A stretch of 64,000 nucleotides of DNA from Candidatus Nomurabacteria bacterium (lineage in GTDB: Bacteria; Patescibacteriota; Minisyncoccia; Phycocordibacterales; UBA5272): the NCBI GenBank assembly GCA_028286645.1, contig JAQBRF010000002.1, positions 58,518 to 122,517 of the forward strand, in the 5' to 3' direction. The stretch's first letter is position 1. Each line of letters opens with the position of its first letter. Shown here piece by piece: positions 3,789-46,020 of this stretch. The position numbers were made by a program, and so were the translations under genes. Below the pieces are notes generated by a model, which saw only the letters and a program-made list of their open reading frames with translations, searched no databases and was not told the DNA's origin.

Positions 3789-3837
3789 AATTAAAAGTAT
3801 ATCAGGCCTTACCTCTCTCCTCCACACTATATTTGGC

Positions 3838-3937
3838 CCATTCGCGACTACACTCAGGACACTAAAATTTAAACTTCTGTGGTGGACTCCATTATTACTT
3901 AGGAGCGAGTTAGAAAATAAGTTACTCCTCCTCCTGT
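3838..3937. repeat. Element C plus truncated element B
   Basis: cattcgcgactacactcaggacactaaaatttaaacttc matches 7175..7213; followed by gtggtggactccattattacttaggag. Confidence 0.7.
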
Positions 3938-4498: not shown

Positions 4499-4613
4499 TT
4501 TAGTGAATAAAGTATACCAGTTCCACTCTATCTACAATTCGCTAAGGATATGCAAATGTTGTAACTAAAAATTCCCTGTTGATTCAGGAGATTTTTAGTA
4601 ATTATTCATTGCT

Positions 4614-4700
4614 GTGGTGTAGTGGACTCCATTATTTACTTAGGAGAAAGATGGGTTAGAAAATAAGCAGTACCCTTGTAGTAGGTTATAGGAACTGAGA
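4614..4700. repeat. Intergenic repeat element B (~85 bp) copy
   Basis: gtggtgtagtggactccattatttacttaggag...agaaaataagcagtacccttgtagtaggttataggaactgagat; near-identical copies at 7244..7326 and 9449..9528, truncated or degenerate copies at 3878..3937, 3541..3585 and 5359..5440; always directly 3' of a minus-strand gene stop. Confidence 0.8.
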
Positions 4701-4707
4701 TGGGGGT

Positions 4708-7123: not shown

Positions 7124-7243
7124 TTCATAAGTATACCAGCACTTACCCTATGCTGCTTCACGCTATATTTAGTCCATTTGCGACTACGCTCAGGACACTA
7201 AAATTTAAACTTCACTTCGTTCAAATAAATTAAAGTGTGTGCT

Positions 7244-7326
7244 GTGGTGGACTCCATTATTTACTTAGGAAGGAAGTGAGCTAGAAAATAAGCAGTATCC
7301 TTGTGGTAAGGTATAGGAACCGAGAT
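7244..7326. repeat. Intergenic repeat element B copy (part of the full B-C-A module 7127..7326)
   Basis: Direct sequence identity to 4614..4700; followed by element C (7175..7213) and promoter module A (7127..7170). Confidence 0.8.
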
Positions 7327-7769
7327 TAATCAGAAAAAGTAGAAAAGAAAGAAATCTCTCCTGTTTTCTTATTTAGCGTTAACCCCTGATACTCAGCTGG
7401 AATTCCTTCAGATTTTGGAGATCGTTCCCCCAGCTGTTTCTCAAGTTGACCAAGCAATATGTCGCCGCCTCTAAATAATCTAAATTGACTATTAGAGATA
7501 CTCGCACCTAATGGGTTCAATTTTGTACTTAGTTCATGGATAAACCCTTCCACATCTTCTGTTTCTAAACCAAAAGATAGATGGGCCGCTCCTGCAACTT
7601 GAACTCCAGGATCATAAGCGGTCAATACGGCACAAGACCCTCCCGGTAAAACCTCTAATGTTTCTACTTTGCTATTTGGACCTATGACTTCAATAGAGTT
7701 AGTTAGTACTTCTATTGATCGTCCCTGTTCACTTTGATTTTCAAAAAATTGTTTCGGCTCTTGTTCCAT
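7326..7769 (-). CDS. Hypothetical protein, possible CheD-like fold (GGSCAV...AGAAHL)
   Basis: Track ORF trimmed to the ATG 8 nt after the TATACT box; GGSCAVLTAYDPGVQVAGAAHL resembles the CheD Cys/His motif region (weak). Confidence 0.45.
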   Translation of the reverse strand: MEQEPKQFFENQSEQGRSIEVLTNSIEVIGPNSKVETLEVLPGGSCAVLTAYDPGVQVAGAAHLSFGLETEDVEGFIHELSTKLNPLGASISNSQFRLFRGGDILLGQLEKQLGERSPKSEGIPAEYQGLTLNKKTGEISFFSTFSD

Positions 7770-7836
7770 CCCTAAAGTATACCCTACTCCTCTCCACACT
7801 ATATTAGTGTGCTATGTAGAGATTACACGAATTGCA

Positions 7837-8367
7837 TTAACTAAAAAGGGAATTGTAAGCTGATTCTAAAGAAGCATTTCTATCTGGATAAATATCAAAA
7901 TAAGGAAAATTGTTTTTAGATGCCTCTTGTTCTATCTTTTTACTTTTTTTAATAAAGTATTCTGGAAGAGTGTTTTGCTTTTCTTGTGATAAGTTACTTA
8001 CCCAGTCTGACTTAGGGTCACTCTTTTTTATATCTTCCAAAGTTATGTTGCTTGTACCCAAGAAACAACACCTCAATTCTATCTTCTCTTTAAGAGATGT
8101 GACTTGCTCGGGGGTAAACAGGTCTCCTTCTATAACATAATCCTCATATTTGTTTTGAAGAATTTTCAAAAATTGCAGTAAATAAGGAAAAAACACTTCT
8201 GCCTTTTTATCTTCTTCCAAAGCTTTAAGCCCTAGTTGGGTGGGTGAAGAATCTAAAAGATTCCTTATTACATCAGTTGAAATATTAGAAATATGCTTGC
8301 GTTCAAGCATGAGAGCCGCCAACGTACTCTTTCCGACTCTTGCTGTTCCTCCAATAAGATAAATCAT
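7837..8367 (-). CDS. P-loop NTPase / kinase-like protein
   Basis: Walker A GGTARVGKST near the N-terminus after trimming the track ORF to ATG at ~8367. Confidence 0.6.
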   Translation of the reverse strand: MIYLIGGTARVGKSTLAALMLERKHISNISTDVIRNLLDSSPTQLGLKALEEDKKAEVFFPYLLQFLKILQNKYEDYVIEGDLFTPEQVTSLKEKIELRCCFLGTSNITLEDIKKSDPKSDWVSNLSQEKQNTLPEYFIKKSKKIEQEASKNNFPYFDIYPDRNASLESAYNSLFS

Positions 8368-8474
8368 TGCATAAGTATACCCTACTCCCCACCACCCTAT
8401 TGAAATACATATAAGGATGTGTGCCCTTCGGACTACCTTAGGACAATCAATTTTCAACTCAGACGATATTAGGA

Positions 8475-9413
8475 CTATTTTATTTTCTTTTTGAGAAATT
8501 TCAGAACATGAGTATCTGTATATGTAGCTATATCCAGTTCTTTCGAAAAGATATTGATTAGATTTTTCTTTTCTGCTAGTGAGATTTCATTACTGCCAGG
8601 AACATGTACAGAGGCAAGGGCGATATTTTGGTGTTCTTCAATAAAAGAACGTATTTCCTCTCCTCCATCTTTAAAAAGTCCATCGTCAAGAATGTCCTGT
8701 CCATCGTACGAAGCTCGGACAAGCGCATTAAATACTTGATCTTCGGGAACGCCGGAATAGACATGTATCTTGTGTATCAAAATATCTATAAGCATTCTTC
8801 CAATATCATACGTTCTATAATATCCTTCTTCTATCATAGAGCTATTTCCTGATCGTCTAAGATATTCTTCCAGCACTTTATCAGCAATCTTTTCTACCAG
8901 CCCTTCGTTAAAAGCAACACGTGTCCTATTAAAATTTTCATCATTACTAGTCAAACCAGAGACCTCAGCTGAGATTGATGTACCGTCCTTTTCCTCAAAA
9001 TCCTCATACCCGGAAAATTGAGTAGTATGTACCTGTTCGTGAATGAGCAGTTTGAGGGTTATTAATCTCTTTCTCAACTTCTCATTCAAGATAGGTGTGA
9101 TGAATTTGAAATTTGCAGGATTGAAATGCAATGCCGATCGTTCCCCCATTTTTTCCCCAGTTGATTTGTCTACAATAGGCTCTATACCCGCTGTTGCCGC
9201 AAAATAAAATGCGTCATAGAAATATTTTATGTCTTCCTTTTTCACAAATTCCATATCCTTCTCATCTAGTCCCGCTTTCTTATATATTTCTTCGAATATG
9301 GTGCGCAGTAGATCAAAATCCACCCTCTCCAAGTCCTCTTGAATCTTTTCCTTGGATCCTTTAAAAACTTCCTCTTTTGTTTTTTCCCAAAGACTTTTAC
9401 TTTCCATCACCAA
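8475..9413 (-). CDS. HExxH-motif protein, putative zinc metallopeptidase (HEQVHTTQ, DUF4157-like HExxHxxQ pattern)
   Basis: LLIHEQVHTTQF motif; acidic cytoplasmic-looking protein. Confidence 0.5.
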   Translation of the reverse strand: MVMESKSLWEKTKEEVFKGSKEKIQEDLERVDFDLLRTIFEEIYKKAGLDEKDMEFVKKEDIKYFYDAFYFAATAGIEPIVDKSTGEKMGERSALHFNPANFKFITPILNEKLRKRLITLKLLIHEQVHTTQFSGYEDFEEKDGTSISAEVSGLTSNDENFNRTRVAFNEGLVEKIADKVLEEYLRRSGNSSMIEEGYYRTYDIGRMLIDILIHKIHVYSGVPEDQVFNALVRASYDGQDILDDGLFKDGGEEIRSFIEEHQNIALASVHVPGSNEISLAEKKNLINIFSKELDIATYTDTHVLKFLKKKIK

Positions 9414-9448
9414 AGTATACCTTACTCTCCTCTATACTATTTGGTACC

Positions 9449-9528
9449 GTAGCGGACTCCATCAGTTAGGAGCAGAGCGACTTAGAAAATAAGCACCACC
9501 CTGGTGGTAGGTTATAAGAACTGGGATT
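9449..9528. repeat. Intergenic repeat element B copy
   Basis: gtagcggactccatcagttaggag...agaaaataagcaccaccctggtggtaggttataagaactgggatt. Confidence 0.75.
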
Positions 9529-9611: not shown

Positions 9612-10145
9612 TTAAATAAACACATTTAAATATTTAGTAACCGCAAGAAATTCATCATAAAGATTATGCTCTTTTAAAACAGAAATAAATAAAGGATGTG
9701 TGTACCCATCAGCAATAAATTCATGAATATCTTTCCTGTAATTAAAGAATGTTAACCCATCCTTCTCTATCCCGTCAGGAAAGATATCTTTTATCTTTTC
9801 AAAAAAAGTTTTTAGTTCTTGTGTAACTTCTTGTCGAAATTCAATTGCATGAATAATTTCATGCCTCTTTGTTATTTCAGATGTACCAGAGTAAAATAAT
9901 AATGCGTCAAGTCTATCTACATAAGCTCCATTAGCTGTTTTACTAGGAGCTGTATTAAGGTAATAGGCTGGAATGTCGCGCTGTAAATTAAAACCAAATT
10001 CCTTGGCTAAAGTTACAGCATTTTCTACTTTCATTATCTGCATCTTAGTTTGAGTTCCGTCTTTCTCAGTCAAAGAGAAAGTATCTCCTTCTTTTTTCCA
10101 AGGGACTAACGGGTCTCTCACTAATAATGTGGGTTGTTCTTCCAT
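9612..10145 (-). CDS. HExxH-motif protein, putative metallopeptidase-like
   Basis: RHEIIHAIEF motif; track ORF trimmed to ATG after the TATACT box. Confidence 0.5.
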   Translation of the reverse strand: MEEQPTLLVRDPLVPWKKEGDTFSLTEKDGTQTKMQIMKVENAVTLAKEFGFNLQRDIPAYYLNTAPSKTANGAYVDRLDALLFYSGTSEITKRHEIIHAIEFRQEVTQELKTFFEKIKDIFPDGIEKDGLTFFNYRKDIHEFIADGYTHPLFISVLKEHNLYDEFLAVTKYLNVFI

Positions 10146-10190
10146 CTCCAAAGTATACCCTACCCTGCTCCACACTATGTTAAAAGACTC
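10146..10190 (-). promoter_or_regulatory. Conserved promoter/leader module A (gene-sense ATATAGTGTGGAGCAGGGTAGGGTATACTTT-N4-ATG)
   Basis: Same ~45-bp sequence found upstream of the genes starting at 794, 3788, 6359, 7123, 7769, 8367, 9413 and 10145; TATACT ends 7-9 nt before the ATG. Confidence 0.6.
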
Positions 10191-11733: not shown

Positions 11734-12074
11734 ATTTGCATTTTGGAAGCAAAAAGCCCCCAAGGTTGACGACCTTTCGGCCGCCCATATCCGTTTCCAG
11801 ATACGTCTCACTACAAACAAACTCTTGGAACCGTAATTACTCAATGTGATAATAGTTTTGCAACTACTTGTTATGGAAACCATGGGGGCCTACCGGGAAT
11901 TTCTTCGACAAGTATTTGTTCGCCGCCGCTCACAAATCTCGCCTCCCGCCCCTCGCCCATTTTCCTTGCTAGAAAAATATGGCTGTGGTCTTCGAATCCG
12001 GACGTAAACAAAGCAGTTTGTTTACTTAGGCACACCAAATACAAAAACGGCCATAAAGACCGTTTTTGTATTTG

Positions 12075-12179
12075 GTGTGCCTAGTCGAGACACCGGTCGA
12101 ACTTCTCGCGAAATTGCAGAGATGTTTTTAAGCACTATCCCGCAGGCAACGTCTCGACGTCCTGATGTCCCTACTACAC
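12075..12179. repeat. ~105-bp direct repeat copy 1 (begins with tRNA-His 3'-end-like gtgtgcctagtcgagacaccggtcgaac)
   Basis: About 80% identical to 13223..13327; preceded by a perfect 20-bp-stem hairpin 12029..12081. Confidence 0.75.
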
Positions 12180-12560
12180 AGCAGAATCTTCGTCTGCAGT
12201 AGTTCGCTTCTGTCTTTTTTCTTCTTGATAGTCATTCCAGAGAAGCAGCAGAAAGTCACTCATAGCTGCGTCAGCTTGACGAAGTTCTTCTTCGGTGAAG
12301 TCCGGGAAGATCTCGCGAATCACTGGTGCGACTTCCATATCTTCGGGTAGGCGTTTGGGGTGCATGGGGCGATGGGAGGCTCTGAGGTTATTAGGCAGAG
12401 CTAACGCTATCCATAGCACGATATTGACAAATGTCCAAAATATGATTGGATATAAGTAAGTAGTTCTTGTCCTCAGTATTTGGTTGCGGAATGAAGTTCG
12501 AGACTTAAGCAGTTCGCGAATTTCTCCCCTAACCAAGACGAGGTCAGCATGCAGATCCAC
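12174..12560 (-). CDS. Hypothetical membrane protein in GC-rich insert (alternative to or overlapping the 12549 ORF start)
   Basis: One predicted TM helix; long ORFs in GC-rich DNA can be spurious. Confidence 0.3.
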   Translation of the reverse strand: MDLHADLVLVRGEIRELLKSRTSFRNQILRTRTTYLYPIIFWTFVNIVLWIALALPNNLRASHRPMHPKRLPEDMEVAPVIREIFPDFTEEELRQADAAMSDFLLLLWNDYQEEKRQKRTTADEDSAV

Positions 12561-13013
12561 GAGAAGATTGGAAAGTTGGGTGCATCGGTATTCCTGATGT
12601 CAATGATCCCGAACACTCCCGAAGGGAACGAAGCGATCGACACTATGCTTGCGAAAGCGGGCGCGCAGATGCTGCTGTGGTGCAACGCGCTTTACTATCC
12701 GACGATGGAGTTCGCCGAGTGGGTGCATCAACAAGAAACTCGCATTGAGGAGCGTTTCAAGGCAAACCCTGCTTTGGATCGCATGAAAAAAGAGGCGGAT
12801 TTCCTTCTCGAAGCCCACTGGGATCAGGAGTTAGAAGAAGCTCGCGAGGAATACGCAAACGATCCCGAGCATCGAGCTATGGTGGCCCGAATCAACGAGA
12901 AGATCGAGGAGCGGCTCGCCGCGGATCCGGAACTACGTCGGGAGTTTGAGGAAGGACTGGCAGCACATATCGCTCTTGTCTGCGAACAAAGCGCCCGCAA
13001 ACGGATTCACTAA
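12549..13013 (+). CDS. Hypothetical Ala/Glu-rich protein in GC-rich insert
   Basis: GC3-rich codon usage unlike the surrounding genome; SD-like ACGAGGT 5 nt before the ATG. Confidence 0.4.
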   Translation: MQIHEKIGKLGASVFLMSMIPNTPEGNEAIDTMLAKAGAQMLLWCNALYYPTMEFAEWVHQQETRIEERFKANPALDRMKKEADFLLEAHWDQELEEAREEYANDPEHRAMVARINEKIEERLAADPELRREFEEGLAAHIALVCEQSARKRIH

Positions 13014-13222
13014 CATTCTCCTTCTGGGAAAACACTTCAGGCGGCCCTCCCGGGCTGCCTTTTTACTTTTGATGCCAAATAGAGAAAGTATCCGTCAAGA
13101 ACACACTTTGCAAAAGTGTACAAGGCTGGTCGAGGAGAAAACGCTTACTCTGTAAGTCTCATTTGCAATGCAACAAATTACTTTCTCCGCAAGACTACAA
13201 AAATTGCCAAATTTTCCTATTA

Positions 13223-13327
13223 GTGTGCCTACTCGGGACACCGGTCGAACTTTGAGTGAAATTGCCGAGTTGTTTTTAAGCGTCATTCCGCAGCCAACAT
13301 CTCCACGTCCTAACATCTCTACTCACT
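13223..13327. repeat. ~105-bp direct repeat copy 2
   Basis: gtgtgcctactcgggacaccggtcgaactttgagtgaaattgccgagttgtttttaagcgtcattccgcagccaacatctccacgtcctaacatctctactcac. Confidence 0.75.
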
Positions 13328-29045: not shown

Positions 29046-29145
29046 CGGTTCGATTCCTGCCGAGGGCTGCATATGTGAAAAGAAAAAACCACTTAATAAA
29101 ATAAATGGTTTTTTCTTTTCATGTGCCCTCGGCAGGAATCGAACC
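29046..29145. repeat. Long (~45-bp arms) inverted repeat made from the tRNA-Arg 3' end and its downstream palindrome
   Basis: ggttcgattcctgccgagggc...gaaaagaaaaaacca (29046..29091) mirrors 29106..29145; extra fragment gggcagggcaggaatcgc at 28963..28980. Confidence 0.7.
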
Positions 29146-29195
29146 TGCATCGCAAGTACCGCAAACTTGAATTCTATCCATTGAACTACGAGAGC
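29124..29195 (-). tRNA. tRNA-Arg (GCG)
   Basis: Reverse complement GCTCTCGTAGTTCAATGGATAGAAT...uuGCGgu...GCAGGTTCGATTCCTGCCGAGGGCA. Confidence 0.7.
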
Positions 29196-29323: not shown

Positions 29324-29524
29324 CTAATCCCATTCACCGCTCCGGCGGCCCACGATACCAGAAAGATCTCCAGAGTCTTCGTCTCCGCCGAATTCCATGA
29401 AGTCGTCCGGGCGAAGTCTCCGGCCTGACGCGCGGGGTTCAACTACTTCCGGTGGATCTTCCGACCAGTCCCTTCCTCCCGTCCTGACGCGAGCGCTTCT
29501 TTTAGCTGTTTTTACCTTAGCCAT
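29324..29524 (-). CDS. Small GC-rich basic/acidic protein (MAKVKTAKRSARVRTGGRDW...)
   Basis: GC3-rich codons; SD GAGAGGGG 8 nt upstream; perfect 13-bp-stem terminator 29241..29272 downstream. Confidence 0.45.
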   Translation of the reverse strand: MAKVKTAKRSARVRTGGRDWSEDPPEVVEPRASGRRLRPDDFMEFGGDEDSGDLSGIVGRRSGEWD

Positions 29525-29652: not shown

Positions 29653-30570
29653 ATGGAACTTCCCTATGAATTAAAAGATCTATATAGACATTGGCCACAA
29701 CATATAAAAAAAGCCCCTCTTACGCAAAATGTTAAAAACAAAAAACTCTTGAATGATATTAAGTGGTTTATTAAAGAGAGGATAAATATCTGGGAAAAGA
29801 AAACTTCTGGCGCATCTCCGCCATTTACAAAAGATCCTATTTTATCTACCTATCGATTTTGTAATATATTCAGAGAGTTTGATAAGCAGACCATAGCCTT
29901 TCACACAAGATTAAATCCACTAAGAAATGACTTCCCTTTATGGCTTTTAAATATGTTTTATTTCCGAATGGTGGCAAATATAGAAACAATAAATACGCTT
30001 GGACTTCTTTCTTATAATAAAAAGGACGGTGAAGAGTTTTATAAAAGAATCATGGTTTCACCAAGACCCCGCTTCGGAACTCCTTATGTATTTCCTATAA
30101 GCACCATAATGCGTAGTGAAACTCCGACCAGAGAGGCTTTTATATCATTTTACCTTCCGAGTGTTATGAAAAAGATTGCAAAAGAAATAAAGACGTGGAG
30201 CAAAGAGTCGGTTTACGATGGGGTAGAAAGGATACTTCCTCTTTTTGGTTACAATCTCCGTTTTCTTTGGACAGAAGTCTTAATCGACGTTGCCTATCAA
30301 TATCCGAAGCGTTTAGATTTATTTAAAAGATTCCCTATAGGTCCGGGATCAGCGCCGACATTTAAAAGAATTGATAATAGCAAGGACCCTTCTATTTTGG
30401 TTACGGAATTATCCTTGACCTCTGTTTCAACCGGGGTTTCCTTTAATGGAAAAGCTCTGCGGCTATCTGCAGAAAACTGGGAAGGAGTTGGATGTGAATT
30501 TAGGAAATATACGAATTTAAAAAACGGGCACGGGAGAAAAAGATTATATAAAAAATCGCCCAGCAAGTGA
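29653..30570 (+). CDS. Hypothetical protein (305 aa), no recognisable motif
   Basis: Long clean ORF adjacent to the tRNA-Arg scar region. Confidence 0.55.
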   Translation: MELPYELKDLYRHWPQHIKKAPLTQNVKNKKLLNDIKWFIKERINIWEKKTSGASPPFTKDPILSTYRFCNIFREFDKQTIAFHTRLNPLRNDFPLWLLNMFYFRMVANIETINTLGLLSYNKKDGEEFYKRIMVSPRPRFGTPYVFPISTIMRSETPTREAFISFYLPSVMKKIAKEIKTWSKESVYDGVERILPLFGYNLRFLWTEVLIDVAYQYPKRLDLFKRFPIGPGSAPTFKRIDNSKDPSILVTELSLTSVSTGVSFNGKALRLSAENWEGVGCEFRKYTNLKNGHGRKRLYKKSPSK

Positions 30571-30932: not shown

Positions 30933-31493
30933 ATGATTGGACATCTCCGAGGTAAGGCTATAAGCGTAAATAATCAATCACTGATACTGGATGTTGGAGG
31001 AGTCGGGTACAGTGTATACTTGCCTCTACCGCTGCTTCTTTCTGTTAAGGAAAATGATGAGGCATCTTTCTGCATACATACTCATGTACGAGAAGATTCT
31101 ATTGTGCTTTATGGATTTAAGGACACTTTAGACCTGGCACTTTTTGAAAATTTAATAAACATTTCTGGGATTGGCCCAAAGAGCGCTCTTGCCATGCTTT
31201 CGGTTCATTCCCCTGCGTCCATTGCGGACGCTATAGAGCGAGAAGACATAGAAGCACTGTCACATACTCCAGGAGTGGGTAAAAAAACTGCAGCAAAGAT
31301 TATTTTAGAATTAAAAGGCAAGCTGGCACATTTAGTGCAAACTAAAGAAACAGATATTACGTTTGAAGTTCGTATGGCCCTTGAAACTCTTGGATACTCT
31401 CCAAAGGAAATTCACGATACGCTTAGTAAATTGAAAACTGAAAATAAAACGACGGGTGTATTAATAAAAGAAGCTCTACAGCAATTACAATAA
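30933..31493 (+). CDS. ruvA: Holliday junction branch-migration complex subunit RuvA
   Basis: MIGHLRGK...VGGVGY...ISGIGPKSALAMLS HhH motifs. Confidence 0.9.
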   Translation: MIGHLRGKAISVNNQSLILDVGGVGYSVYLPLPLLLSVKENDEASFCIHTHVREDSIVLYGFKDTLDLALFENLINISGIGPKSALAMLSVHSPASIADAIEREDIEALSHTPGVGKKTAAKIILELKGKLAHLVQTKETDITFEVRMALETLGYSPKEIHDTLSKLKTENKTTGVLIKEALQQLQ

Positions 31494-31537
31494 GGCCGTG
31501 GTGCAGTAAAGTAGCGCATAGGGGGTAGAAAATTAAA

Positions 31538-31566
31538 ATCGCCGAGCTGCTTCGCAGCTCGGCGAT
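31538..31566. terminator. Bidirectional hairpin terminator (ruvA + / 31573 gene -)
   Basis: atcgccgagctgc-ttcg-cagctcggcgat flanked by T-runs on both strands. Confidence 0.65.
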
Positions 31567-31572
31567 CGTTTT

Positions 31573-31881
31573 CTACTTCACTTCCGGTATACACGGAATG
31601 GGCTTCCCATCTTTGTCCGGAACCCACCCACCCCATGAATAGTCCGCCCTGCTTCCGAACCGTCGCCACATAATATCGCCGGAACAGAAGTTCTCTCCTT
31701 GCAGGAGGGGAAGCCTTCTTCGCAAATCTTTCCCCGGGACACTGGAATCGGTATTCTCCGGGTTGGCCGCCGCATACATGTCGGCGAAGTATCCGGCATT
31801 TAGTCCGGGCGGCTCTGCCGCGGCTGGAAGTGAGTAAAAGAAGAGAAGCGCTATAAGAAGTGATTTCATAAGAACCCCCAA
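31573..31881 (-). CDS. Small GC-rich secreted protein (signal peptide MKSLLIALLFFYSLPAAA)
   Basis: GC3-rich codons; SD GGGGG; conserved AT-rich promoter module upstream shared with 32192..32470. Confidence 0.5.
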   Translation of the reverse strand: MGVLMKSLLIALLFFYSLPAAAEPPGLNAGYFADMYAAANPENTDSSVPGKDLRRRLPLLQGENFCSGDIMWRRFGSRADYSWGGWVPDKDGKPIPCIPEVK

Positions 31882-31990
31882 TGTTGAACTTACTACACAA
31901 CACTACAATTTAGTGCAAACTATGTCAAGTCGGACTTTATTATTTATTTTCCTGGAAAGTGAAGTAAGTCCACGAGCATGCTTATAAAGA
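31882..31990 (-). promoter_or_regulatory. Conserved ~100-bp upstream module (TTGACA-N17-TAGTGT promoter plus TTTCCTGGAAA palindrome), copy 1
   Basis: Matches 32471..32580: ttgaacttact...acactacaatttagtgcaaactatgtcaa...ttttcctggaaa. Confidence 0.6.
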
Positions 31991-32191
31991 AGGATCGGAC
32001 TCAATTACAATAAAAACACCGGGCGCTTTCGCGACCCGGTTTTGCTGCGTGTTTAAGGCTACTGCATATTGCACGGCATCGCCCGATTAGTAATCGGGTC
32101 GATTAGGATGAATGTATTAATCCGCCGGCAGTAGTTTTCCTCACCTAGCATCTAAACCTATTCCCCAAATGAAACTTAGGAGTCGATTTTC

Positions 32192-32470
32192 TTATTTCTC
32201 GGCGTCGCACGACCCCGGCAGAAGAATGACATGATCGATCCTGGCGGTCTTGTCCCGGAACATTCCAATTTCCAGGATGATGATGCCTTCTTTCATGCCT
32301 ACATCAATCACACATCTTTTCCGAAATGTTCCAGGAGAAAGAGCGGGCAGCCGCTGACTCTGTGCGTAGCTGGCCACCGCCTGTGCAGCGGCTGCATGCC
32401 GTGGCTGGACGAGGACCTGCGGAACTGCCAGGGCCGAAAATGCTGCTATCGCAAACAAAAATCTTCTCAT
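32192..32470 (-). CDS. Small GC-rich secreted protein (signal peptide MRRFLFAIAAFSALAVP)
   Basis: SD GTGAGG; conserved upstream module; hairpin downstream. Confidence 0.5.
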   Translation of the reverse strand: MRRFLFAIAAFSALAVPQVLVQPRHAAAAQAVASYAQSQRLPALSPGTFRKRCVIDVGMKEGIIILEIGMFRDKTARIDHVILLPGSCDAEK

Positions 32471-32580
32471 ACTAGCCTCACGGTTGGTTGAACTTACTTA
32501 ATAACACTATAATTTAGTGCAGATTATGTCAATATAACTTTATCTAAGTATTTTCCTGGAAACTGACAGCTGAAAACTGT
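32471..32580 (-). promoter_or_regulatory. Conserved upstream module, copy 2
   Basis: See 31882..31990. Confidence 0.6.
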
Positions 32581-32591
32581 AGACTACCTAT

Positions 32592-33878
32592 ATGGAAAAA
32601 CTTCTCCGTACAGTCGAAAAGCTCATCCCGAGAAAAGTTTATAACTTCTTTCAGCCTGCATATCACTTCCTCCTAGCTATTACCGGCGCCTTAATTTATC
32701 GAGGCCCATCTAAATATATTTATGTTATAGGAGTAACTGGAACTAAAGGCAAATCCTCAACCGCGGAATTTATAAATGCTGTTCTAGAAGCCGCAGGTAA
32801 GAAAACCGCCATCTTATCTACCATAAGATTTAAAGTGGGAGACAAGACTCGTCCAAACAAATTTAAAATGACTATGCCGGGAAGATTCTTTACTCAAAAA
32901 TTCTTACGTGAAGCGGTGGACGCTAAATGCCAATATGCAATTATAGAAATGACGTCAGAAGGCGCGAGATTTTTCCGTCATGTAGGCGTTGAGCTCGACG
33001 CTCTTATTTTTACCAATCTCTCCCCTGAGCACATAGAAAGCCATGGCTCATTTGAAAAATATAAAAAAGCAAAGCTCCGTTTGGCTAAAAGACTTTCTAA
33101 TAGCAATAAATTAGTCCGCATTGCTATTGCCAATACCGACAATGAACATGCATACTCCTTTCTTGTGTATCCAGTTGAAAAAAATATCGGATACTCATTG
33201 AAGCAAGTGCATATAATTTCAGAAGATCAAAACGGAAGTGACATTGAATATAACGGAGTAAAAATCCATATTCCTATCCCCGGTAAATTTAATATTTCAA
33301 ATGCGCTTGCGGCTCTTAAGCTTGCAGAAGAAAATAATATTTCTATTGAAGCAGCGAAGAAAGGAATTGAGTCTCTATCGCTTATCCGCGGCCGCGTAGA
33401 GAAAATTGATTTAGGACAGGATTTTACAGTGGTAGTAGATTACGCGCACACAGATGATAGCTTAAGAAAGTTATACGAAGCATTTCCTGTTTCAAGAAAG
33501 ATCGGAGTACTAGGTTCTACTGGTGGAGGAAGAGACTCATGGAAGCGTCCAGTCTTAGGAAAAATAGCTGATGAATATTGTGATGAAATAATTCTTACAA
33601 ATGAAGATCCGTATGACGAAGATCCGATAAAGATTATAAATGAGGTCGCAAGCAGCATCACCAAACATTCTCCTCATATAATAATGGATCGTCGCGAGGC
33701 AATCGCTCAAGCATTTTCTTTGGCAAAGACTGGGGATGCCGTTTTGATCACAGGAAAAGGAACTGACCCATACATCATGGGACCAAATGGATCTAAAATT
33801 TTGTGGGATGACGCGCAAGTCGCAAGAGAAGAATTAGAAAAGATCATTAAAACAGAGACTGCCCCCAGCCGGGTATAA
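32592..33878 (+). CDS. Mur ligase family protein, MurE-like (UDP-MurNAc-tripeptide synthetase-like)
   Basis: P-loop GVTGTKGKSST; DYAHTDDSL motif; C-terminal Mur-ligase domain. Confidence 0.7.
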   Translation: MEKLLRTVEKLIPRKVYNFFQPAYHFLLAITGALIYRGPSKYIYVIGVTGTKGKSSTAEFINAVLEAAGKKTAILSTIRFKVGDKTRPNKFKMTMPGRFFTQKFLREAVDAKCQYAIIEMTSEGARFFRHVGVELDALIFTNLSPEHIESHGSFEKYKKAKLRLAKRLSNSNKLVRIAIANTDNEHAYSFLVYPVEKNIGYSLKQVHIISEDQNGSDIEYNGVKIHIPIPGKFNISNALAALKLAEENNISIEAAKKGIESLSLIRGRVEKIDLGQDFTVVVDYAHTDDSLRKLYEAFPVSRKIGVLGSTGGGRDSWKRPVLGKIADEYCDEIILTNEDPYDEDPIKIINEVASSITKHSPHIIMDRREAIAQAFSLAKTGDAVLITGKGTDPYIMGPNGSKILWDDAQVAREELEKIIKTETAPSRV

Positions 33879-34302: not shown

Positions 34303-34716
34303 TCAGCTTGAGGCGCCGGCCGCTCTCAGGGCGTCATAGATCTGAGATTTCTTCTTCTCCCCGATTCCCGAGACTCCGGAAACTCCGTTTCGAACAACGT
34401 CGCCTATGCTACTACGCCCTGAGTAGAAGAGAAGCTGGACAGTGGCATGGCTGAGCCCGTAGTCTTCCAGCTTCAAGACGCTTTCCTTCAGGATGGCGGG
34501 CTCACTGACGCCTCTGCTGCCAGCCGGAGCGTCAGCAGGGATAGCGGAGGGTTTCTTTCTTTTCGAGTACCCAGGGCTTCGCCCCAATCCGGCCTGCGCC
34601 ATGAGTTTTCTCGCCCGGCGGCGTTGTCCTCGTCCTTGCCCCCTTTGCTTTGTAGGGGGAATCTGTGGTGGCGCCCCCCAGACATTGTCTCGGTCGTCCA
34701 CGGTTAGAAGATGCAT
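34303..34716 (-). CDS. GC-rich protein with basic N-terminus and RNA-polymerase alpha-CTD-like HhH C-terminus
   Basis: LKLEDYGLSHATVQLLFYSGRSSIGDVV...GVSGIGEKKKSQIYDAL resembles alpha-CTD; SD AAGGAG 7 nt upstream; GC3-rich codons. Confidence 0.45.
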   Translation of the reverse strand: MHLLTVDDRDNVWGAPPQIPPTKQRGQGRGQRRRARKLMAQAGLGRSPGYSKRKKPSAIPADAPAGSRGVSEPAILKESVLKLEDYGLSHATVQLLFYSGRSSIGDVVRNGVSGVSGIGEKKKSQIYDALRAAGASS

Positions 34717-39637: not shown

Positions 39638-41755
39638 TTACACGAGTGACTTTTTGTCATCTTTGTAAGAAGCATATACGCTCTTAGCAAGAATGAAGAT
39701 AATGAATACTATCGCTATTAAAGCTAACCATTCAATGAGAGTGTCTGGAAGGAAACTTAATCCGCTTCCTCCTCCGATAACTTTCTTCGCTCCTGTATCT
39801 GTCGTAGCTGAAGTTGCTGGAGTCGCAATTGATCCTACGACATATGCTGTTACTTCGTCTTGAGTGTTTGACCCAGGGACTGTGTAGTTAACATATGATG
39901 TTGTAACAATTGATTTTCCTATCGGAGCATTTTTTGTAACCTTTCCTGTCCAAGTAAGTGTTCCTGTACTTCCGGCTTCTATTGAATCTAGATTAAGCGT
40001 TAATGTATGTGTCGCTATATCGTATGATCCGGCTGAAGTTGAAGTGAATTCAATTTCTTGCGGAATTGTTACTTTAATGATAACTCCGTTTACTTTTACG
40101 TCTGAAAGATTCTTATAAGTTAGTTTATATGTAACCGTTGATTCAGAACTTAGATTTCCAGATACTTTTTCTAATTGTAGAGAAACAAGTTTCTCTCCAT
40201 TTTGAAGCATTGTTGCAGAACTTTGGCTTGTTGTAGTTACGATTGAACCATCCACACAAACCACTTCGTTCTTTTTCACAACTGGCTTTTTCGCGATAGT
40301 CTTTGTTACTGTTACTGGTTTTACATATGTTACGGCCTTGCTCTTAGTTACGAAGCTTACGATTTCACCCTTAACTAGTCCATACTGATTTTGCATAACT
40401 GCTCTACAGTAGTATTTAGTTGCTGGCTTAAGGTTTGCTAGAACGTTTGAGAAGTTTACAGTTGAAGCTGATCCGATCTGAGCTGACGCTGTTGTGCGTC
40501 CTAGATTGGCAGTTTCACCGTATTCAAACCATCCAGTTGACTGTGCGCCATTAGCGATTAATCCTATTCCATTACATCTTGCTGAGTTGATAGTAACTTC
40601 TGTTACAACGCTTGTTACGACGTTATTGAACTTAACTACTGGAGGAGGAATTACTACTGGAGCTTGTGGACACTGTTGGTATACAGGAATACTTGTTCCG
40701 TTTGGACAGAACTTGAACTGTTGAGCACAAGTCTGTGTTGCAGGAATCCGCGATCCATCCCAACATGTCTGGTAAGTAATAACTGGAGGGTTAATGATTT
40801 GCTGACAAACTCCATTTACAAAGTTTGTATTTGAGGGACACTGAGTAACTGTAGTTACTGGAAGTGTGGTTGTACGTACACAAGATCCATTTATAGGAGC
40901 CTGTCCATCAGCACAAATTGTATTTGTAACTACTGGAATTGTATTTGTACGAGTACATGATCCATTGACTGGAAAACTTCCATCTGAACAACGAGTAGTC
41001 GTTACAGTGGGAATAGTAGTAATGATCGGAGTAGTTGGAGTAGTAATTACAGTAGGAGTGGTTATAATAGACGGAGTTGTATAACCTGTCCATGAAGTTG
41101 TCGGATAAACAACTGATGGAGTTGAAGTATAAACTGATCCATATGAAGTTCCGTATCCTGTAGAACCGTATGCTGTGGTTCCATATCCTATAGCTCCGTA
41201 AGTTGTGGGGTATGAAGAATAACTAGGAGTATAAACACCGCTCGGCATATAAACCCCGTTAGGATAACTAGTTGTTGTATTCCATGTTCCTATATCATAG
41301 GATCCAGTAGGAGATACAGTAGTGGAATTCCATGTTCCAGAGTCATACGAAGGCACGTTGGTATTCCAACTTCCAGTGTCATACGAAGGCACGTTAGTGT
41401 TCCAAGAACCTGTATCATAACTAGGCACGTTGGTATTCCAACTTCCTGTATCGTATGATGGTACGTTGGTATTCCAACTTCCAGTGTCATACGAAGGCAC
41501 GTTGGTATTCCAACTTCCTGTATCGTATGATGGTACGTTGGTATTCCAACTTCCTGTATCGTATGATGGTACGTTGGTATTCCAACTTCCTGTATCGTAT
41601 GATGGTACGTTGGTATTCCAACTTCCAGTGTCATACGAAGGCACGTTAGTGTTCCAAGAACCTGTATCATCCATACCGTCCGCAAATGCGAAAAGTGTAG
41701 ATTGCTGAATAGCGATAACTAGAAACAGTGTGATAATTTTTTTTGTTGTTTTCAT
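39638..41755 (-). CDS. Large cell-surface protein with ~10 tandem 12-aa repeats (DTGSWNTNVPSY), Thr/Pro-rich region and C-terminal TM anchor
   Basis: Signal peptide MKTTKKIITLFLVIAI; repeats visible at protein and DNA level; C-terminal hydrophobic helix plus KDDKKSLV. Confidence 0.7.
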   Translation of the reverse strand: MKTTKKIITLFLVIAIQQSTLFAFADGMDDTGSWNTNVPSYDTGSWNTNVPSYDTGSWNTNVPSYDTGSWNTNVPSYDTGSWNTNVPSYDTGSWNTNVPSYDTGSWNTNVPSYDTGSWNTNVPSYDTGSWNTNVPSYDSGTWNSTTVSPTGSYDIGTWNTTTSYPNGVYMPSGVYTPSYSSYPTTYGAIGYGTTAYGSTGYGTSYGSVYTSTPSVVYPTTSWTGYTTPSIITTPTVITTPTTPIITTIPTVTTTRCSDGSFPVNGSCTRTNTIPVVTNTICADGQAPINGSCVRTTTLPVTTVTQCPSNTNFVNGVCQQIINPPVITYQTCWDGSRIPATQTCAQQFKFCPNGTSIPVYQQCPQAPVVIPPPVVKFNNVVTSVVTEVTINSARCNGIGLIANGAQSTGWFEYGETANLGRTTASAQIGSASTVNFSNVLANLKPATKYYCRAVMQNQYGLVKGEIVSFVTKSKAVTYVKPVTVTKTIAKKPVVKKNEVVCVDGSIVTTTSQSSATMLQNGEKLVSLQLEKVSGNLSSESTVTYKLTYKNLSDVKVNGVIIKVTIPQEIEFTSTSAGSYDIATHTLTLNLDSIEAGSTGTLTWTGKVTKNAPIGKSIVTTSYVNYTVPGSNTQDEVTAYVVGSIATPATSATTDTGAKKVIGGGSGLSFLPDTLIEWLALIAIVFIIFILAKSVYASYKDDKKSLV
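41290..41655. repeat. 36-bp in-frame tandem repeat array (~10 units) inside the surface protein gene
   Basis: ggtacgttggtattccaacttcctgtatcgtatgat repeated with few substitutions. Confidence 0.85.
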
Positions 41756-41891
41756 ACCTTTATATAATTTATTAGGTGTAAGTATTATATCACGAAAGAA
41801 ATAAAAAGTCAAGGGGCAAAAGAAAACCGCCCTGGGGGGCGGTCTGGGGGTCGAACCTCGGGAGAGGCTCAGAGGGGTGTGGGCGCTTCGG

Positions 41892-42692
41892 TTACTTTAC
41901 CGCGCCGATGTGCTTGTAGGTGCTCTTGTCGTCGATGCCTTGCTTGGCGGCGACGCGGAACGACCACTGTTGCTCCGTCTCACCGTTGTTCGGCGCGACG
42001 ATCTCCACATCCGAGCAGTTCGCGGGTTTGCCGCTGATCTGCTTGGTTGCGTAGCAGTGCATCGGGCTTTGCGCCGACGAGTTCGGGTGGTACCAGCCCC
42101 AGAAGGTGCTGGCGTTCGCCGGAAACGACGGAAGCGGAGCCGAGCTCGAAGCAGTCCTTGCGGGCTGCACTGCCGGCGGAGATGCCGGACGATTACCGTG
42201 GGTCACGGTGGGGCGTTTGCACCCGAGAACCGCGGCACAGATGGCGTCAGACGTCATCTGTTGCTGCGGAGTGGAAGCCTTGAGCGCGAGCGCGTTCACG
42301 CTTCCTTGAAGGCCTTCAAGTGAGGCCTTGGTCGCGTCGGCGGTTTTCACCGCGGCTTCCGCTTGTTTTTTCGCGGTCGTCGCGTTGCTGTCCACGGCCT
42401 TGAACTCGTCGCTCGCGAGGGCCAGTGTTTTGGCTTTCTCGGTGACGCCTGCGACGGCGTTGTCGAAATTGCTATTGCTGGGCGTCGTGAACGCCAGGAG
42501 GATCGCGAGGATCATTGCGCCTACGCCGGCCGCGATCGCCAGATTCGCGCGAGTGTGGTCCGGGGAGGGAGCCAGATCTGAGGCGGCGTAGATCTTGCCG
42601 TCGTGGCCTTGAACGAAGACGCGCGTGTCTCCGGCCGCAACCATCTTAGTCACTTCTGCGTCGGTAAAGCCTTTCGGTTGGCGATTAGCCAT
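41892..42692 (-). CDS. GC-rich Ala-rich membrane-anchored protein with conserved Cys-containing C-terminal domain
   Basis: GC3-rich codons; SD GAGGTG; N-terminal cytoplasmic segment then TM helix (LAIAAGVGAMILAILLAF); C-terminal W.W...PM.C...K.I...C..V.AP..GET..QW shared with 42881..43963. Confidence 0.55.
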   Translation of the reverse strand: MANRQPKGFTDAEVTKMVAAGDTRVFVQGHDGKIYAASDLAPSPDHTRANLAIAAGVGAMILAILLAFTTPSNSNFDNAVAGVTEKAKTLALASDEFKAVDSNATTAKKQAEAAVKTADATKASLEGLQGSVNALALKASTPQQQMTSDAICAAVLGCKRPTVTHGNRPASPPAVQPARTASSSAPLPSFPANASTFWGWYHPNSSAQSPMHCYATKQISGKPANCSDVEIVAPNNGETEQQWSFRVAAKQGIDDKSTYKHIGAVK

Positions 42693-42761
42693 GGTTCACC
42701 TCTTAGGTTATGTGGTGGAACTCTGATAAGCGTTTGGAAATCCATTCGCTCGTTAATATGT

Positions 42762-42789
42762 AGTATACACTATTAAAAAGAATTGTCAA
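42762..42789 (-). promoter_or_regulatory. Consensus sigma70-type promoter TTGACA-N17-TGtATACT for 41892..42692
   Basis: Gene sense: cTTGACAattctttttaatagtgTATACT. Confidence 0.6.
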
Positions 42790-42880
42790 GTGATATATGA
42801 AATAAAAATAGTATAAAAAAGCCCTCCACTGTGGAGGGCTTCGACCAGGATTGGTCTGATGTGCGGAGGATCCGCTGGCG

Positions 42881-43963
42881 TTAGAGCTTTTCGGCTCTGA
42901 GCGCCCACTGATCACGCGTTTCGCCGGCGACCGGCGCGAGAACTTTCATCTCCGAGCAGAACGGCGGGTTGGGCGCATTGATCAGCTTTTCGACGACACA
43001 TGCCATCGGGTTCTGGGAGGTTGCCTTTCCCGGCTTCCATTTCCAGAGATCGACACCGTTTTCCGCCGGACGCGCCGCCGGAACGACAGTTCGCGTTACG
43101 CTCGCCGAGGAGGTTTGCGTTGCGGTCGATCCGCTTTGTGTCGTGACCACAGATGACGAGGTGGCAACTGCGCCTTCGACGAGCTCGGGTTTTACCGTAA
43201 GCCTGTCGCAGGTCGGCTTGTCTTTCACATATGCGACGACCCCTTGGGTGGGGAAGCTGCACGGGCTGAGACTTGCCGGCACGGTTTGGCGTTGCACCGT
43301 CGTGCGTTGCTGCGAAAACTCGCTGCCACCCAGCTGAACGGGCATATTGCCACCGTTTTCGCTGATGTTCGCGGGAAACGTCGCTGCGGGACGCATCGGG
43401 ATCGAGGTCTGAATGATCCGACCTTCGTCGCCATCGTTGACGATATACGGATCGCACCCGTAGGTGAGACCGTATGCAACTCCTACAGCGCCGCCGATTT
43501 TCGCACCGTCGACGAACTTGTGACGGGTGAATTTGGCGACCACTCCTCCGAAGAGGGCGGCTGCGGCACCGTCGACGAGCCCCGTCATTCCGCGATCCGA
43601 AAGCGAGCAGCGAACGCGTCGTCCGCCCATGTTCGCGGTAAACGGCTGACCGTACTGCACACCTTGCGGCATGAAGTAAGTCTGATTGCCGTACGCGAAC
43701 ACCGGCTGGTTCCCGATCATCGGAACAGCGTAGGATTGACCTGCGGAGCACGCGAGGTGTCCTTGCGGGCAATTCCACTGGCCGTTGACGAGAATGTTGG
43801 GTGCCGAACCTTGCTGTTGTCCCGTCATGGTCGGAACGACCATTTGGGCTTGCGTCCCGAAGGACGCGGCGGCGAGGGCAACTGCGAAAAGCGTGTTGAG
43901 CTTGTTCATGCGGTTCTCCTGAATTGACTTGGTACGGGGTCTTGTAGACGGACCAAAGGTCAA
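42881..43963 (-). CDS. GC-rich secreted protein, paralogous C-terminal domain to 41892..42692
   Basis: Signal peptide MNKLNTLFAVALAAASFGTQAQ; SD AGGAG; same C-terminal domain. Confidence 0.55.
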   Translation of the reverse strand: MTFGPSTRPRTKSIQENRMNKLNTLFAVALAAASFGTQAQMVVPTMTGQQQGSAPNILVNGQWNCPQGHLACSAGQSYAVPMIGNQPVFAYGNQTYFMPQGVQYGQPFTANMGGRRVRCSLSDRGMTGLVDGAAAALFGGVVAKFTRHKFVDGAKIGGAVGVAYGLTYGCDPYIVNDGDEGRIIQTSIPMRPAATFPANISENGGNMPVQLGGSEFSQQRTTVQRQTVPASLSPCSFPTQGVVAYVKDKPTCDRLTVKPELVEGAVATSSSVVTTQSGSTATQTSSASVTRTVVPAARPAENGVDLWKWKPGKATSQNPMACVVEKLINAPNPPFCSEMKVLAPVAGETRDQWALRAEKL

Positions 43964-43982
43964 TCTATCAAGGTATGAGTAC

Positions 43983-44010
43983 AGTATACACTATTCACAG
44001 GATTTGTCAA
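43983..44010 (-). promoter_or_regulatory. Consensus sigma70-type promoter TTGACA-N17-TATACT for 42881..43963
   Basis: Gene sense: cTTGACAaatcctgtgaatagtgTATACT. Confidence 0.6.
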
Positions 44011-44319: not shown

Positions 44320-46020
44320 ATGGCTATTACATTTGATGACGCGGTACAAAATCATGAGTTGGAAGACTTACGCAAAAACGAAGAGGAGGAATTAGTAAAA
44401 ATTCTTTCAGATAAATACGGACTTCCGTATATTGACCTGCGCGGGCTGGCTCCGGAACCAGACGCTATGCAAGTAATAAAAGAAGAAGACGCCAGAGAAG
44501 TGGGGCTCGCGCCTTTTAAAATAGTTGGCAGGAAACTTTATATAGCCACAATCTCCCCGGGAAATCCAAGAATGGAGGAGCTTCTTCGTCCACTAGAAAC
44601 CAGAGGAACTGAATTAATTTTATTTCTTTGTTCTCACGCATCACTTAACCATGTGCTTTCTAGATATGTGGATTTAAATAAAGGATCAAAAGTAGAAAGC
44701 GGAATGCTTGAGCTTACGAAAGAAAAAATCCACGGGCTCATGGAAAAGTTTAATGACGTTGATGAATTAAAAAAAACCTTTGACGAAATATCACATTCCC
44801 AGGTTCTATATAAAACCACAAGAATTATAGAAGTCATAATCGCCGGAGCGCTTAAATTCGACGCGAGCGATATACATATAGAACCAGAAGAAGACAAGGT
44901 AAGATTGAGATATAGATTAAATGGAAATTTGATCGACATAACTTTCTTTGATTACGAGCTGTTAAAAAACATCACGAGCAGATTAAAGCTTTTGTCCGGT
45001 CTTAAGCTCTCAACATCTGCTAACGCACAAGATGGAAGATTTAGCATCGACTTAGATGAGGTAGAGGTGGAAGTGCGCGTGTCTGTAATACCTTCAAACT
45101 ATGGAGAAGGATTTGTGATGAGATTGCTTGACCCAAGGCACTCTGTGACAGATTTAAACAACATCGCATTTTCTCCAAAACTCCGCGCTCTTGTAGAATA
45201 TTCGCTTAGCAAGCCAAACGGAGTTATTCTTACAACCGGCCCGACAGGGTCCGGTAAGACTACCACTTTATATGCGTTTTTACACAAGATGTATAACCCT
45301 GAATTAAAAGTAATTACAATTGAGGACCCGGTAGAATACCATCTGGAAGGAATTACTCAAACTCAAGTAGAGGAAGAAAAAGGATATACATTCGTTGCTG
45401 GATTACGAGCCGCACTTCGTCAAGATCCTGACATAATAATGGTGGGAGAAATCCGAGACACAGACACAGCAAAAGTCGCGATCAATGCTGCGCTCACGGG
45501 GCATTTAGTTTTCTCAACACTTCACACCAATACCGCCGCTGGAACTATACCGCGATTAATCGACTTAGGAGTAAACCCAAAAGTTATCGCTTCTGCCCTA
45601 TCGCTCGCCCTTGCTCAAAGACTCGTAAGAAGCCTTTGCAATGAATGCAAGCAAGAATATGAAAGCAGTGAAAAAGAGTCCCGTGTAATTACGAATGTTT
45701 TAGGAGAAATGAAAATAGCAGGAAAAGAGGAGTCCATGATGGGACACACCCCTCTTGTTACTTATAAATTATTTAAACCTGTGGGCTGCAGCAAATGTGG
45801 AGGAACTGGATATTCTACTCGAATAGGAATATTTGAAGCGATTAGCATGAATGCGGATATTGAAAAGATTTTAATCACGAATCCTAGTGAAAGAGAAATA
45901 CGGGAAGTTTCTAAAAACCAAGGAATCCCAACGCTTAAGGAGGATGGTATAATTAAGATGCTCGAGGGACTTACTTCGTTTGAGGAATTGGGCAAGACAA
46001 TTGATCTTTTCGGAGAATAA
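44320..46020 (+). CDS. pilB: Type IV pilus assembly ATPase PilB / GspE-family secretion ATPase
   Basis: Walker A GPTGSGKTT; Asp and His boxes; tetracysteine CNEC...CSKCGG; terminator aaaccc-tttc-gggttt at 46068..46086. Confidence 0.9.
   Translation: MAITFDDAVQNHELEDLRKNEEEELVKILSDKYGLPYIDLRGLAPEPDAMQVIKEEDAREVGLAPFKIVGRKLYIATISPGNPRMEELLRPLETRGTELILFLCSHASLNHVLSRYVDLNKGSKVESGMLELTKEKIHGLMEKFNDVDELKKTFDEISHSQVLYKTTRIIEVIIAGALKFDASDIHIEPEEDKVRLRYRLNGNLIDITFFDYELLKNITSRLKLLSGLKLSTSANAQDGRFSIDLDEVEVEVRVSVIPSNYGEGFVMRLLDPRHSVTDLNNIAFSPKLRALVEYSLSKPNGVILTTGPTGSGKTTTLYAFLHKMYNPELKVITIEDPVEYHLEGITQTQVEEEKGYTFVAGLRAALRQDPDIIMVGEIRDTDTAKVAINAALTGHLVFSTLHTNTAAGTIPRLIDLGVNPKVIASALSLALAQRLVRSLCNECKQEYESSEKESRVITNVLGEMKIAGKEESMMGHTPLVTYKLFKPVGCSKCGGTGYSTRIGIFEAISMNADIEKILITNPSEREIREVSKNQGIPTLKEDGIIKMLEGLTSFEELGKTIDLFGE

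Follow-up and report, generated by a model that had tools for sequence, protein, structure and literature searches.

This report concerns the junction between ruvA and a Mur-ligase family gene (mur) in a 64,000-nucleotide (nt) stretch of an uncultured Candidatus Nomurabacteria bacterium (contig JAQBRF010000002.1, positions 58,518–122,517), hereafter the window, in whose own coordinates all positions are given and whose guanine-plus-cytosine (GC) content is 39.6%. The gap between ruvA and mur measures 1098 nt here and is occupied by an insert of two tandem units lying on the strand opposite to both genes, each comprising an intrinsic terminator, a GC-rich gene for a two-cysteine protein of about 95 amino acids (aa), and an AT-rich junction segment of about 85–130 nt. 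The two genes are designated gene A and gene B, and the repeated segments upstream of them R2 and R3, respectively. The features of the locus are as follows.

30933–31493, plus strand: ruvA (186 aa; Pfam RuvA_N, HHH_5 and RuvA_C), the upstream boundary of the insert.
31330–31344, plus strand: the 15-mer ATTTAGTGCAAACTA within ruvA (codons ~134–138), repeated exactly in the putative promoter spacer of gene A.
31464–31493, plus strand: the final 30 nt of ruvA with its stop codon, from which the terminus relic derives.
31537–31567, both strands: bidirectional intrinsic terminator serving ruvA (plus) and gene A (minus), its 14-bp stem called on both strands (-26.5 kcal/mol, z = -6.0).
31573–31869, minus strand: gene A, a predicted small secreted protein of 98 aa, 54.5% GC (ATG, Shine-Dalgarno sequence, signal-peptide features, homolog P0004).
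31883–31966, minus strand: R2, putative promoter and leader of gene A, from repeat alignments and pattern matches (leader 31883–31894; -10 31900–31905; ruvA 15-mer 31908–31922; -35 31923–31928; palindrome 31948–31958).
31984–32013, plus strand: ruvA terminus relic ATAAAGAAGGATCGGACTCAATTACAATAA, matching the ruvA end at 21/30 positions with the last 12 nt identical, and without another match of 21 or more in the window.
32010–32040, minus strand: gene B terminator (stem 32018–32040, then the U-run UGUUUUUAUU; -17.2 kcal/mol).
32192–32470, minus strand: gene B, a predicted small secreted ORFan protein of 92 aa, 54.1% GC, recognised by intrinsic features.
32487–32570, minus strand: R3, putative promoter and leader of gene B, from repeat alignments and pattern matches (leader 32487–32498; -10 32504–32509; 15-mer variant 32512–32526; -35 32527–32532; palindrome 32552–32562).
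32592–33878, plus strand: mur (Pfam Mur_ligase_M and Mur_ligase_C), the downstream boundary of the insert.

Separating ruvA from mur, a derived, lineage-specific insert of 1098 bp splits an otherwise tight gene pair. The ruvA stop codon falls 1–31 nt before the mur ATG in 17/17 of the closest relatives (66–78% Mur identity), and the gap is shorter than 60 nt in most of the 145 Parcubacteria loci holding both genes. Genes A and B, at 54–55% GC, belong to the top 4% of 280-nt windows, with a third-codon-position GC content (GC3) of 56–59% versus ~30% in ruvA and mur, and the promoter segments contain 33–36% GC, the switch in composition lying about 30–40 nt past each ATG. The Mur-ligase protein beside the insert shows at most 78% identity to proteins of metagenome-assembled genomes labelled Candidatus Nomurabacteria, Paceibacterota or Parcubacteria; among public sequences, only one 4.7-kb Logan contig, belonging to sample SRR13312974, is identical to the region, and exact-protein look-ups for strain variants returned these sequences from that sample alone. 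Inserts of at least 100 nt are present between ruvA and mur in about 20 of the 145 loci, and most of the 16 that were examined for open reading frames (ORFs) contain a single one on the reverse strand. Independent inserts of this type, mostly with one reverse-strand ORF, were seen at L016, L037, L061, L064, L096, L108, L122 and L123, and several of their ORFs have signal-peptide or membrane-like N-termini.

The regions upstream of genes A and B resemble each other closely, with 76% mean column identity over about 100 nt in a MAFFT alignment, an ungapped core of 46 nt at 87% identity (31883–31928 versus 32487–32532) and a second ungapped block of 18 nt at 94% identity (31945–31962 versus 32549–32566), both blocks being offset by 604 nt. 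A preliminary description of this DNA had called the upstream 100 bp near-identical, which overstated a real identity of 76–87%; the similarity itself goes far beyond generic promoter hexamers. On the minus strand, each copy runs TTTCCAGGAAAATA, 16 nt, TTGACA, 17 nt, TAGTGT, about 6 nt, AGTAAGTTCAAC, a Shine-Dalgarno sequence and ATG. The two hexamers had been described with a spacer of 16 or 17 nt and prove to be separated by 17 nt in both copies, the -35 hexamer matching the consensus at 6/6 positions. The perfect 11-nt palindrome TTTCCAGGAAA, reported earlier at about -60, is indeed centred there in both copies and appears nowhere else in the 64 kb; the 12-nt leader block AGTAAGTTCAAC is common to both copies and likewise limited to these two places, and the 30-nt degenerate pattern TTGACATARTYTGCACTAAATTRTAGTGTT matches the window twice, at both module sites, with 0 matches expected.

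Several possible regulatory features can be read from this arrangement. The palindrome is placed like an activator site and may be bound by a regulator, and a CACTA-N5-TAGTG element overlapping the -10 hexamer is a further candidate. The octamer TTCCAGGA/TCCTGGAA occurs six times in the window, four of them within 31950–32561; two of the four are the promoter palindromes, and the other two (32270 and 32329) lie inside gene B, where they belong to a 16-bp internal stem formed by the inverted repeat 32250–32264 / 32325–32339; these occurrences may be extra binding sites or due to chance. Any promoter activity of R2 and R3 and any regulator binding are putative. A stem-loop after each gene had also been proposed, and both hairpins carry the U-run of an intrinsic terminator; that of gene B escaped a simple scan owing to one stem mismatch, and the two terminators are not homologous.

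The repeats carry relics of the 3' part of ruvA, as revealed by anchored and local alignments of ruvA with R2 and R3 (a three-way MAFFT alignment mis-registered the 15-mer). The 15-mer ATTTAGTGCAAACTA recurs exactly at 31908–31922 in the gene A spacer and with two mismatches at 32512–32526 in the gene B spacer; at up to two mismatches, the window contains these three occurrences (31330, 31908 and 32512), all on the plus strand and collinear, with 0.24 expected. Beyond R2 lies the terminus relic, whose terminal 12-mer CAATTACAATAA, including the ruvA stop codon, is found in the window only at the end of ruvA and at 32002–32013. A control search returned four matches of at least 21/30 that did not involve a ruvA end in 2.85 M positions (~1.4e-6 per position). 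Both the 15-mer match and the terminus match are collinear with ruvA and lie on its strand. When R2 is aligned locally, with gaps, to the 3' end of ruvA, it scores better than 99.5% of random segments of the window (p~0.005). The -35 and -10 hexamers and the palindrome are missing from the corresponding ruvA sequence, which indicates that they are derived features shared by R2 and R3.

Comparable traces were found in other genomes. L167, a 1.2-kb Logan contig from SRR22808055 with RuvA and Mur fragments ~75–78% identical to those of the window, has directly upstream of mur 30 nt that match the window's ruvA terminus at 22/30 positions. This match stops 1 nt short of the mur ATG, at the very place occupied by the ruvA stop codon in relatives, so that a displaced ruvA terminus has stayed beside mur; the working ruvA of L167 ends 443 nt further upstream. 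Two distant Parcubacteria loci, L038 and L107, contain fresh 74-nt direct repeats of the ruvA terminus with ~92% identity (2611–2684 versus 3888–3960 and 3967–4040 versus 4690–4763, respectively), bounding inserts of 1.2 kb and 0.65 kb in which no recombinase was recognised. A RelB-type antitoxin is encoded in the L107 insert, and a DUF3800 protein by the ORF that follows the repeat in L038. In L038, a 37-nt identical core precedes two versions of the terminus that have diverged yet remain open, and the short identical core with abrupt one-sided loss of similarity at the window's locus resembles both L038 and att junctions.

Gene A was first drawn to a TTG at 31881; the ATG at 31869 is the likelier start, being preceded at 5 nt by GGGGG. 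Hand analysis of the N-terminus revealed Sec features (K2, the h-region SLLIALLFF and a cleavage site between AAA and E), giving the predicted signal peptide MKSLLIALLFFYSLPAAA followed by EPP, and the protein contains Cys62 and Cys93. Word-indexed protein searches returned nothing for gene A, and a profile of gene A and P0004 returned only P0004. Exhaustive HMMER searching with gene A found this 96-aa protein, encoded on L167, as the one true relative, so that the family has two known members. The two proteins share 55% identity over their C-terminal 40 residues (BLASTP E=2e-14; C.G.I.WR.F ... WGGWVPDK.GKPI.C), all similarity having already been lost in the N-terminal halves, and P0004 likewise has a predicted signal peptide and two cysteines. 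Since 12/22 identical residues in the aligned blocks use different codons, conservation acts at the protein level and the gene A frame is real, with its lowest GC at the second codon position (GC2) in this frame; the gene caller had chosen another frame, of 163 aa. The P0004 gene lies between ruvA and mur in antisense orientation, is followed by a hairpin terminator and forms a single unit. The same HMMER search also returned four giant surface proteins with a short repeated motif (E.F..G.I.W.R.G..AD), which were set aside as weak repeat matches rather than family members.

Gene B is preceded by GAGG 5 nt before its ATG and has comparable Sec features by hand analysis (RR, the h-region IAAFSALAV and cleavage between ALA and V), yielding the predicted signal peptide MRRFLFAIAAFSALA followed by VPQ; its cysteines are Cys53 and Cys88. 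The GC content of its codon positions follows the order GC1 > GC3 > GC2, GC2 again being lowest in the called frame. A word-indexed protein search with gene B found only itself, the sole database entry being the identical sequence from the same sample. Neither protein matched Pfam, and the AlphaFold models (predicted local distance difference test, pLDDT, 47.6 for gene A and 51.8 for gene B) were too poor for a fold search, leaving no function or fold assignable to either protein. The two proteins had been called unrelated signal-peptide proteins with GC-rich codons, and this description holds, as neither their sequences (BLASTP E=16) nor their coding DNA show any similarity.

Considering these observations together, the account we regard as the more probable, while granting it substantial uncertainty, is that two small secreted ORFans owe their promoter to the scars left when DNA was repeatedly inserted or duplicated at the end of ruvA. 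Because R2 and R3 carry relics of the ruvA 3' end, they are read as scars of insertion or duplication at the ruvA terminus, that is, as attR-like junctions. Such a scar would then have gained the expression signals for its antisense cargo, namely a perfect -35 hexamer, a 17-nt spacer, a weak -10 hexamer, the leader and possibly a regulator site. Gene A is shared with L167 at the same locus, which makes it the older resident; we infer that it came first and that gene B was added later with a copy of gene A's junction and promoter. The small number of copies, the ruvA relics and the residence of gene A at the same locus in L167 argue for a local duplication of a junction or promoter at an insertion hot spot. 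Since equivalent scars would supply their signals, the A and B proteins would be made and exported under the same control, by way of Sec, and would probably be disulfide-bonded. The terminators would insulate the two units from ruvA and mur. Bidirectional terminators now part ruvA from mur, so that mur probably uses a new promoter, which would lie inside R3, where a plus-strand TATAAT at 32508–32513, ~80 nt upstream of the mur ATG, is a possible candidate. As to the recombination itself, two mechanisms are candidates: related mini-elements, equipped with a surrogate ruvA end, may have integrated site-specifically, or the cargo may have been replaced after a tandem duplication.

A number of observations speak against this account. 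The -10 hexamer matches the consensus at 3/6 positions (among them the A at position 2 and the T at position 6), and a consensus promoter scan called neither promoter, both being below its threshold. R3 compared with ruvA by itself does not reach significance (p~0.07; 13/15 in the core) and has no terminus relic, and the alignment of R2 with ruvA is weak between the 15-mer and the terminus. The resemblance of R2 to R3 far exceeds that of either to ruvA, which a simple model of two integrations does not predict. In L167, the rest of the upstream region aligns marginally with the window's promoter (p 0.01–0.06) and contains no palindrome. The insert holds no recombinase, only two small ORFs without a Pfam hit between ruvA and mur, and no second copy or excised form of it is known. 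Gene B, having no homolog, is taken as coding from its intrinsic features. Finally, gene A is GC-rich though its syntenic homolog P0004 is AT-rich (39% GC, GC3 33%), a contrast that might reflect a recent xenologous replacement, the donor being GC-rich and having the same locus.

An alternative, which we consider doubtful, is a tandem duplication of an ancestral gene A unit in which the second coding region was replaced or diverged into gene B, the ruvA relics dating from the first insertion only. The closer resemblance of R2 and R3 to each other than to ruvA, together with their common derived -35, -10, palindrome and leader, is what such a duplication would leave, and it also agrees with the single unit in L167. 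The proteins fit as well, given that A, B and P0004 all measure ~95 aa and have, besides a signal peptide, two cysteines 30–35 residues apart near the C-terminus, and that the N-terminal halves of A and P0004 are already dissimilar. However, the coding regions and terminators retain no residual DNA or protein similarity although the non-coding repeat keeps 76–87% identity, the units differ in length and in their 3' untranslated regions, and the replacement step requires an extra, unspecified recombination event.

A broader reading, and an unlikely one, is that the ruvA 3' end serves in Parcubacteria as an attachment site for recombinase-less mini-cassettes that deliver single foreign genes, each bringing a surrogate ruvA end and a terminator, with the att junction acting as promoter of the cargo and tandem arrays of co-regulated secreted ORFans as the outcome. 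Were this reading true, the GC-rich small secreted proteins might act at the host interface.

The preliminary description had gone further and seen a reusable expression cassette into which different small secreted proteins are placed. This captures the unrelated, compositionally atypical signal-peptide ORFs that stand behind a homologous AT-rich promoter and leader with terminators of their own, yet it does not extend to a general or mobile element, and a mobile or genome-wide cassette of promoter and terminator with slots for different secreted-protein genes is highly improbable. Two unrelated cargo genes behind one promoter type, the sharp change in composition just past each ATG, and other repeated 5' leader modules before unrelated genes in the window, which make reuse seem a habit of this genome, are all in keeping with it. 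Against it, the search for the module and the palindrome recovered just two copies in the 64 kb, both adjacent, the segment carries relics of ruvA that are specific to this locus, and the terminators are not homologous. Exact-pattern scans of one genome for each of 185,579 species, 241 M metagenome records and 2.9 M viral contigs gave no match, and none of the 165 related loci retrieved contains the module. A shorter sub-pattern had four hits among the viral contigs, which were put down to chance.

That the GC-rich segments are structured non-coding RNAs with accidental ORFs is scarcely credible, for although GC-rich DNA gives long chance ORFs in several frames (hence the 163-aa frame preferred over gene A), the whole units fold with z ~ -3 when the terminators are included and gene B has its 16-bp internal stem, the coding parts alone fold like shuffled sequences (z = -0.74 for A and -1.23 for B), Rfam yields nothing at gathering or E-value thresholds, gene A is conserved as a protein with synonymous changes, and both ORFs have a Shine-Dalgarno sequence, an ATG and a canonical signal peptide. 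The apparent structure of the whole units disappeared once the terminators were excluded. At the gathering threshold, Rfam found only tRNAs in the window, and a permissive search found nothing overlapping the ORFs or promoter repeats in 31573–32591.

Set against known systems, the reading of R2 and R3 as insertion scars places the locus as a local evolutionary curiosity, a variant of the known islets at gene 3' ends and of exapted promoters. Integrative elements inserted at the 3' ends of conserved genes, including tRNA, tmRNA and some protein genes, are flanked by end repeats in an attL/attR pattern. The insert resembles such elements and islets in being lacking in relatives, in its atypical composition, in leaving the target gene intact and in stacking units at one site. 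Its repeats agree in part: R2 combines an identical ruvA core of 15 nt with a diverged terminus, comparable to the 37-nt core and diverged termini of L038, and R3 has a 13/15 core and no terminus. It differs from them in that there is no integrase or recombinase in or beside the 0.5-kb units and no second or excised copy known, in that the repeats are old and decayed, and in that the repeat doubles as the putative promoter of the cargo. BLASTN of the insert against plasmids and phages gave no match, and full-text literature searches turned up no account of ruvA serving as an attachment site in Patescibacteria. An inverted-repeat search of 31400–32650 found no terminal inverted repeats bounding either unit, of the kind expected of insertion sequences or miniature inverted-repeat transposable elements. 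Integron cassette arrays are similar in that small units with one gene each, the genes being unrelated and often ORFans, are lined up in tandem at one site; in contrast, the units here have their own promoter-like segment and terminator, lie antisense to the flanking genes and have repeats derived from ruvA, no attC-like site, attI or IntI was seen, and the hairpins, GC-rich stems each followed by a U-run, are terminators.

With promoters exapted from pseudogene fragments, the locus shares a decayed fragment upstream of new genes bearing hexamers that ruvA itself does not have, but here the fragment would then have been duplicated with new cargo, and its activity is putative. The two proteins recall the small Sec-secreted disulfide ORFans of episymbionts of the Candidate Phyla Radiation (CPR)/Patescibacteria in being short, fast-evolving and lineage-restricted with an N-terminal signal peptide; unlike for those, no fold or function can be assigned here (pLDDT 48–52), and the gene A family comprises two members.

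Other shared upstream sequences occur in the window. A conserved leader of 40–60 nt, ATAGTGTGGAG.GGAGTAGGGTATACTTT..GATGGAA, start codon included, precedes at least five apparently unrelated minus-strand genes (785–823, 7764–7802, 8362–8400, 9402–9440 and 10140–10178) and has no Rfam match; this family is a second, larger case of a shared upstream module in the genome. Interleaved with it are intergenic repeat families of 61–89 nt with 62–89% identity (4613–4701, 7238–7326 and 9439–9527, plus 3550–3580; 3817–3877 and 7153–7213). Beside two tRNA genes, a 104-nt direct repeat (12072–12175 / 13220–13323; 81% identity, 1148 nt apart) brackets the GC-rich ORFs 12174–12560 (minus) and 12549–13013 (plus), an arrangement reminiscent of the ruvA units that may mark a further insertion scar.

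The strongest GC island of the window, 41767–44002, reaches 68% GC and holds two paralogous ORFs, 41892–42692 (266 aa) and 42881–43963 (360 aa), which have no Pfam hit and share a C-terminal two-cysteine domain of ~55 aa (36% identity, E=1e-10). It adjoins a 566-aa ORF (44320–46020) and the gene of a large surface protein. In a 724-aa surface protein (39638–41812, minus), at least nine tandem 36-nt repeats (41287–41742) encode DTGSWNTNVPSY units near the N-terminus. The DNA of genes A and B shows no homology to the window's other GC-rich islands, and neither protein resembles the 266-aa ORF. Two more small GC-rich ORFs on the minus strand, 29324–29524 (66 aa) and 34303–34716 (137 aa), have 58–59% GC, a Shine-Dalgarno-like site and a downstream hairpin each, and no signal peptide; the 137-aa product has no Pfam hit, and L002 lacks both its gene and the neighbouring tRNA-binding-domain gene in the interval from mur to fpg. 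About 40 nt beyond the tRNA gene at 29124–29195, the 3' end of that gene recurs in inverted orientation (GGTTCGATTCCTGCCGAGGGC, 29047–29084) and forms a long hairpin that gives rise to spurious miRNA-like Rfam hits. The gene at 29653–30570, between a GC island and rpsT, encodes the helical domain of a 5-hydroxymethyl-2'-deoxyuridine (5-hmdU) DNA kinase (PF18723, E=6e-17), so that a CPR genome here has a function of phage type in DNA hypermodification.

The practical value of the locus is modest and lies in helping to annotate the small GC-rich ORFans of CPR genomes more accurately, as illustrated by the wrong frame taken for gene A. The ruvA–mur junction is flagged as a recurrent insertion point, of which duplication of the ruvA end is a recognisable signature. 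For the biology of the organism, the scar reading would offer a concrete and datable case in which new secreted proteins are gained and wired up by a reduced genome of the episymbiont type: foreign units of one gene each interrupt an operon junction that is conserved in Parcubacteria, and promoter-like signals lie in a decaying piece of the adjacent gene, which would have been copied for the next arrival.

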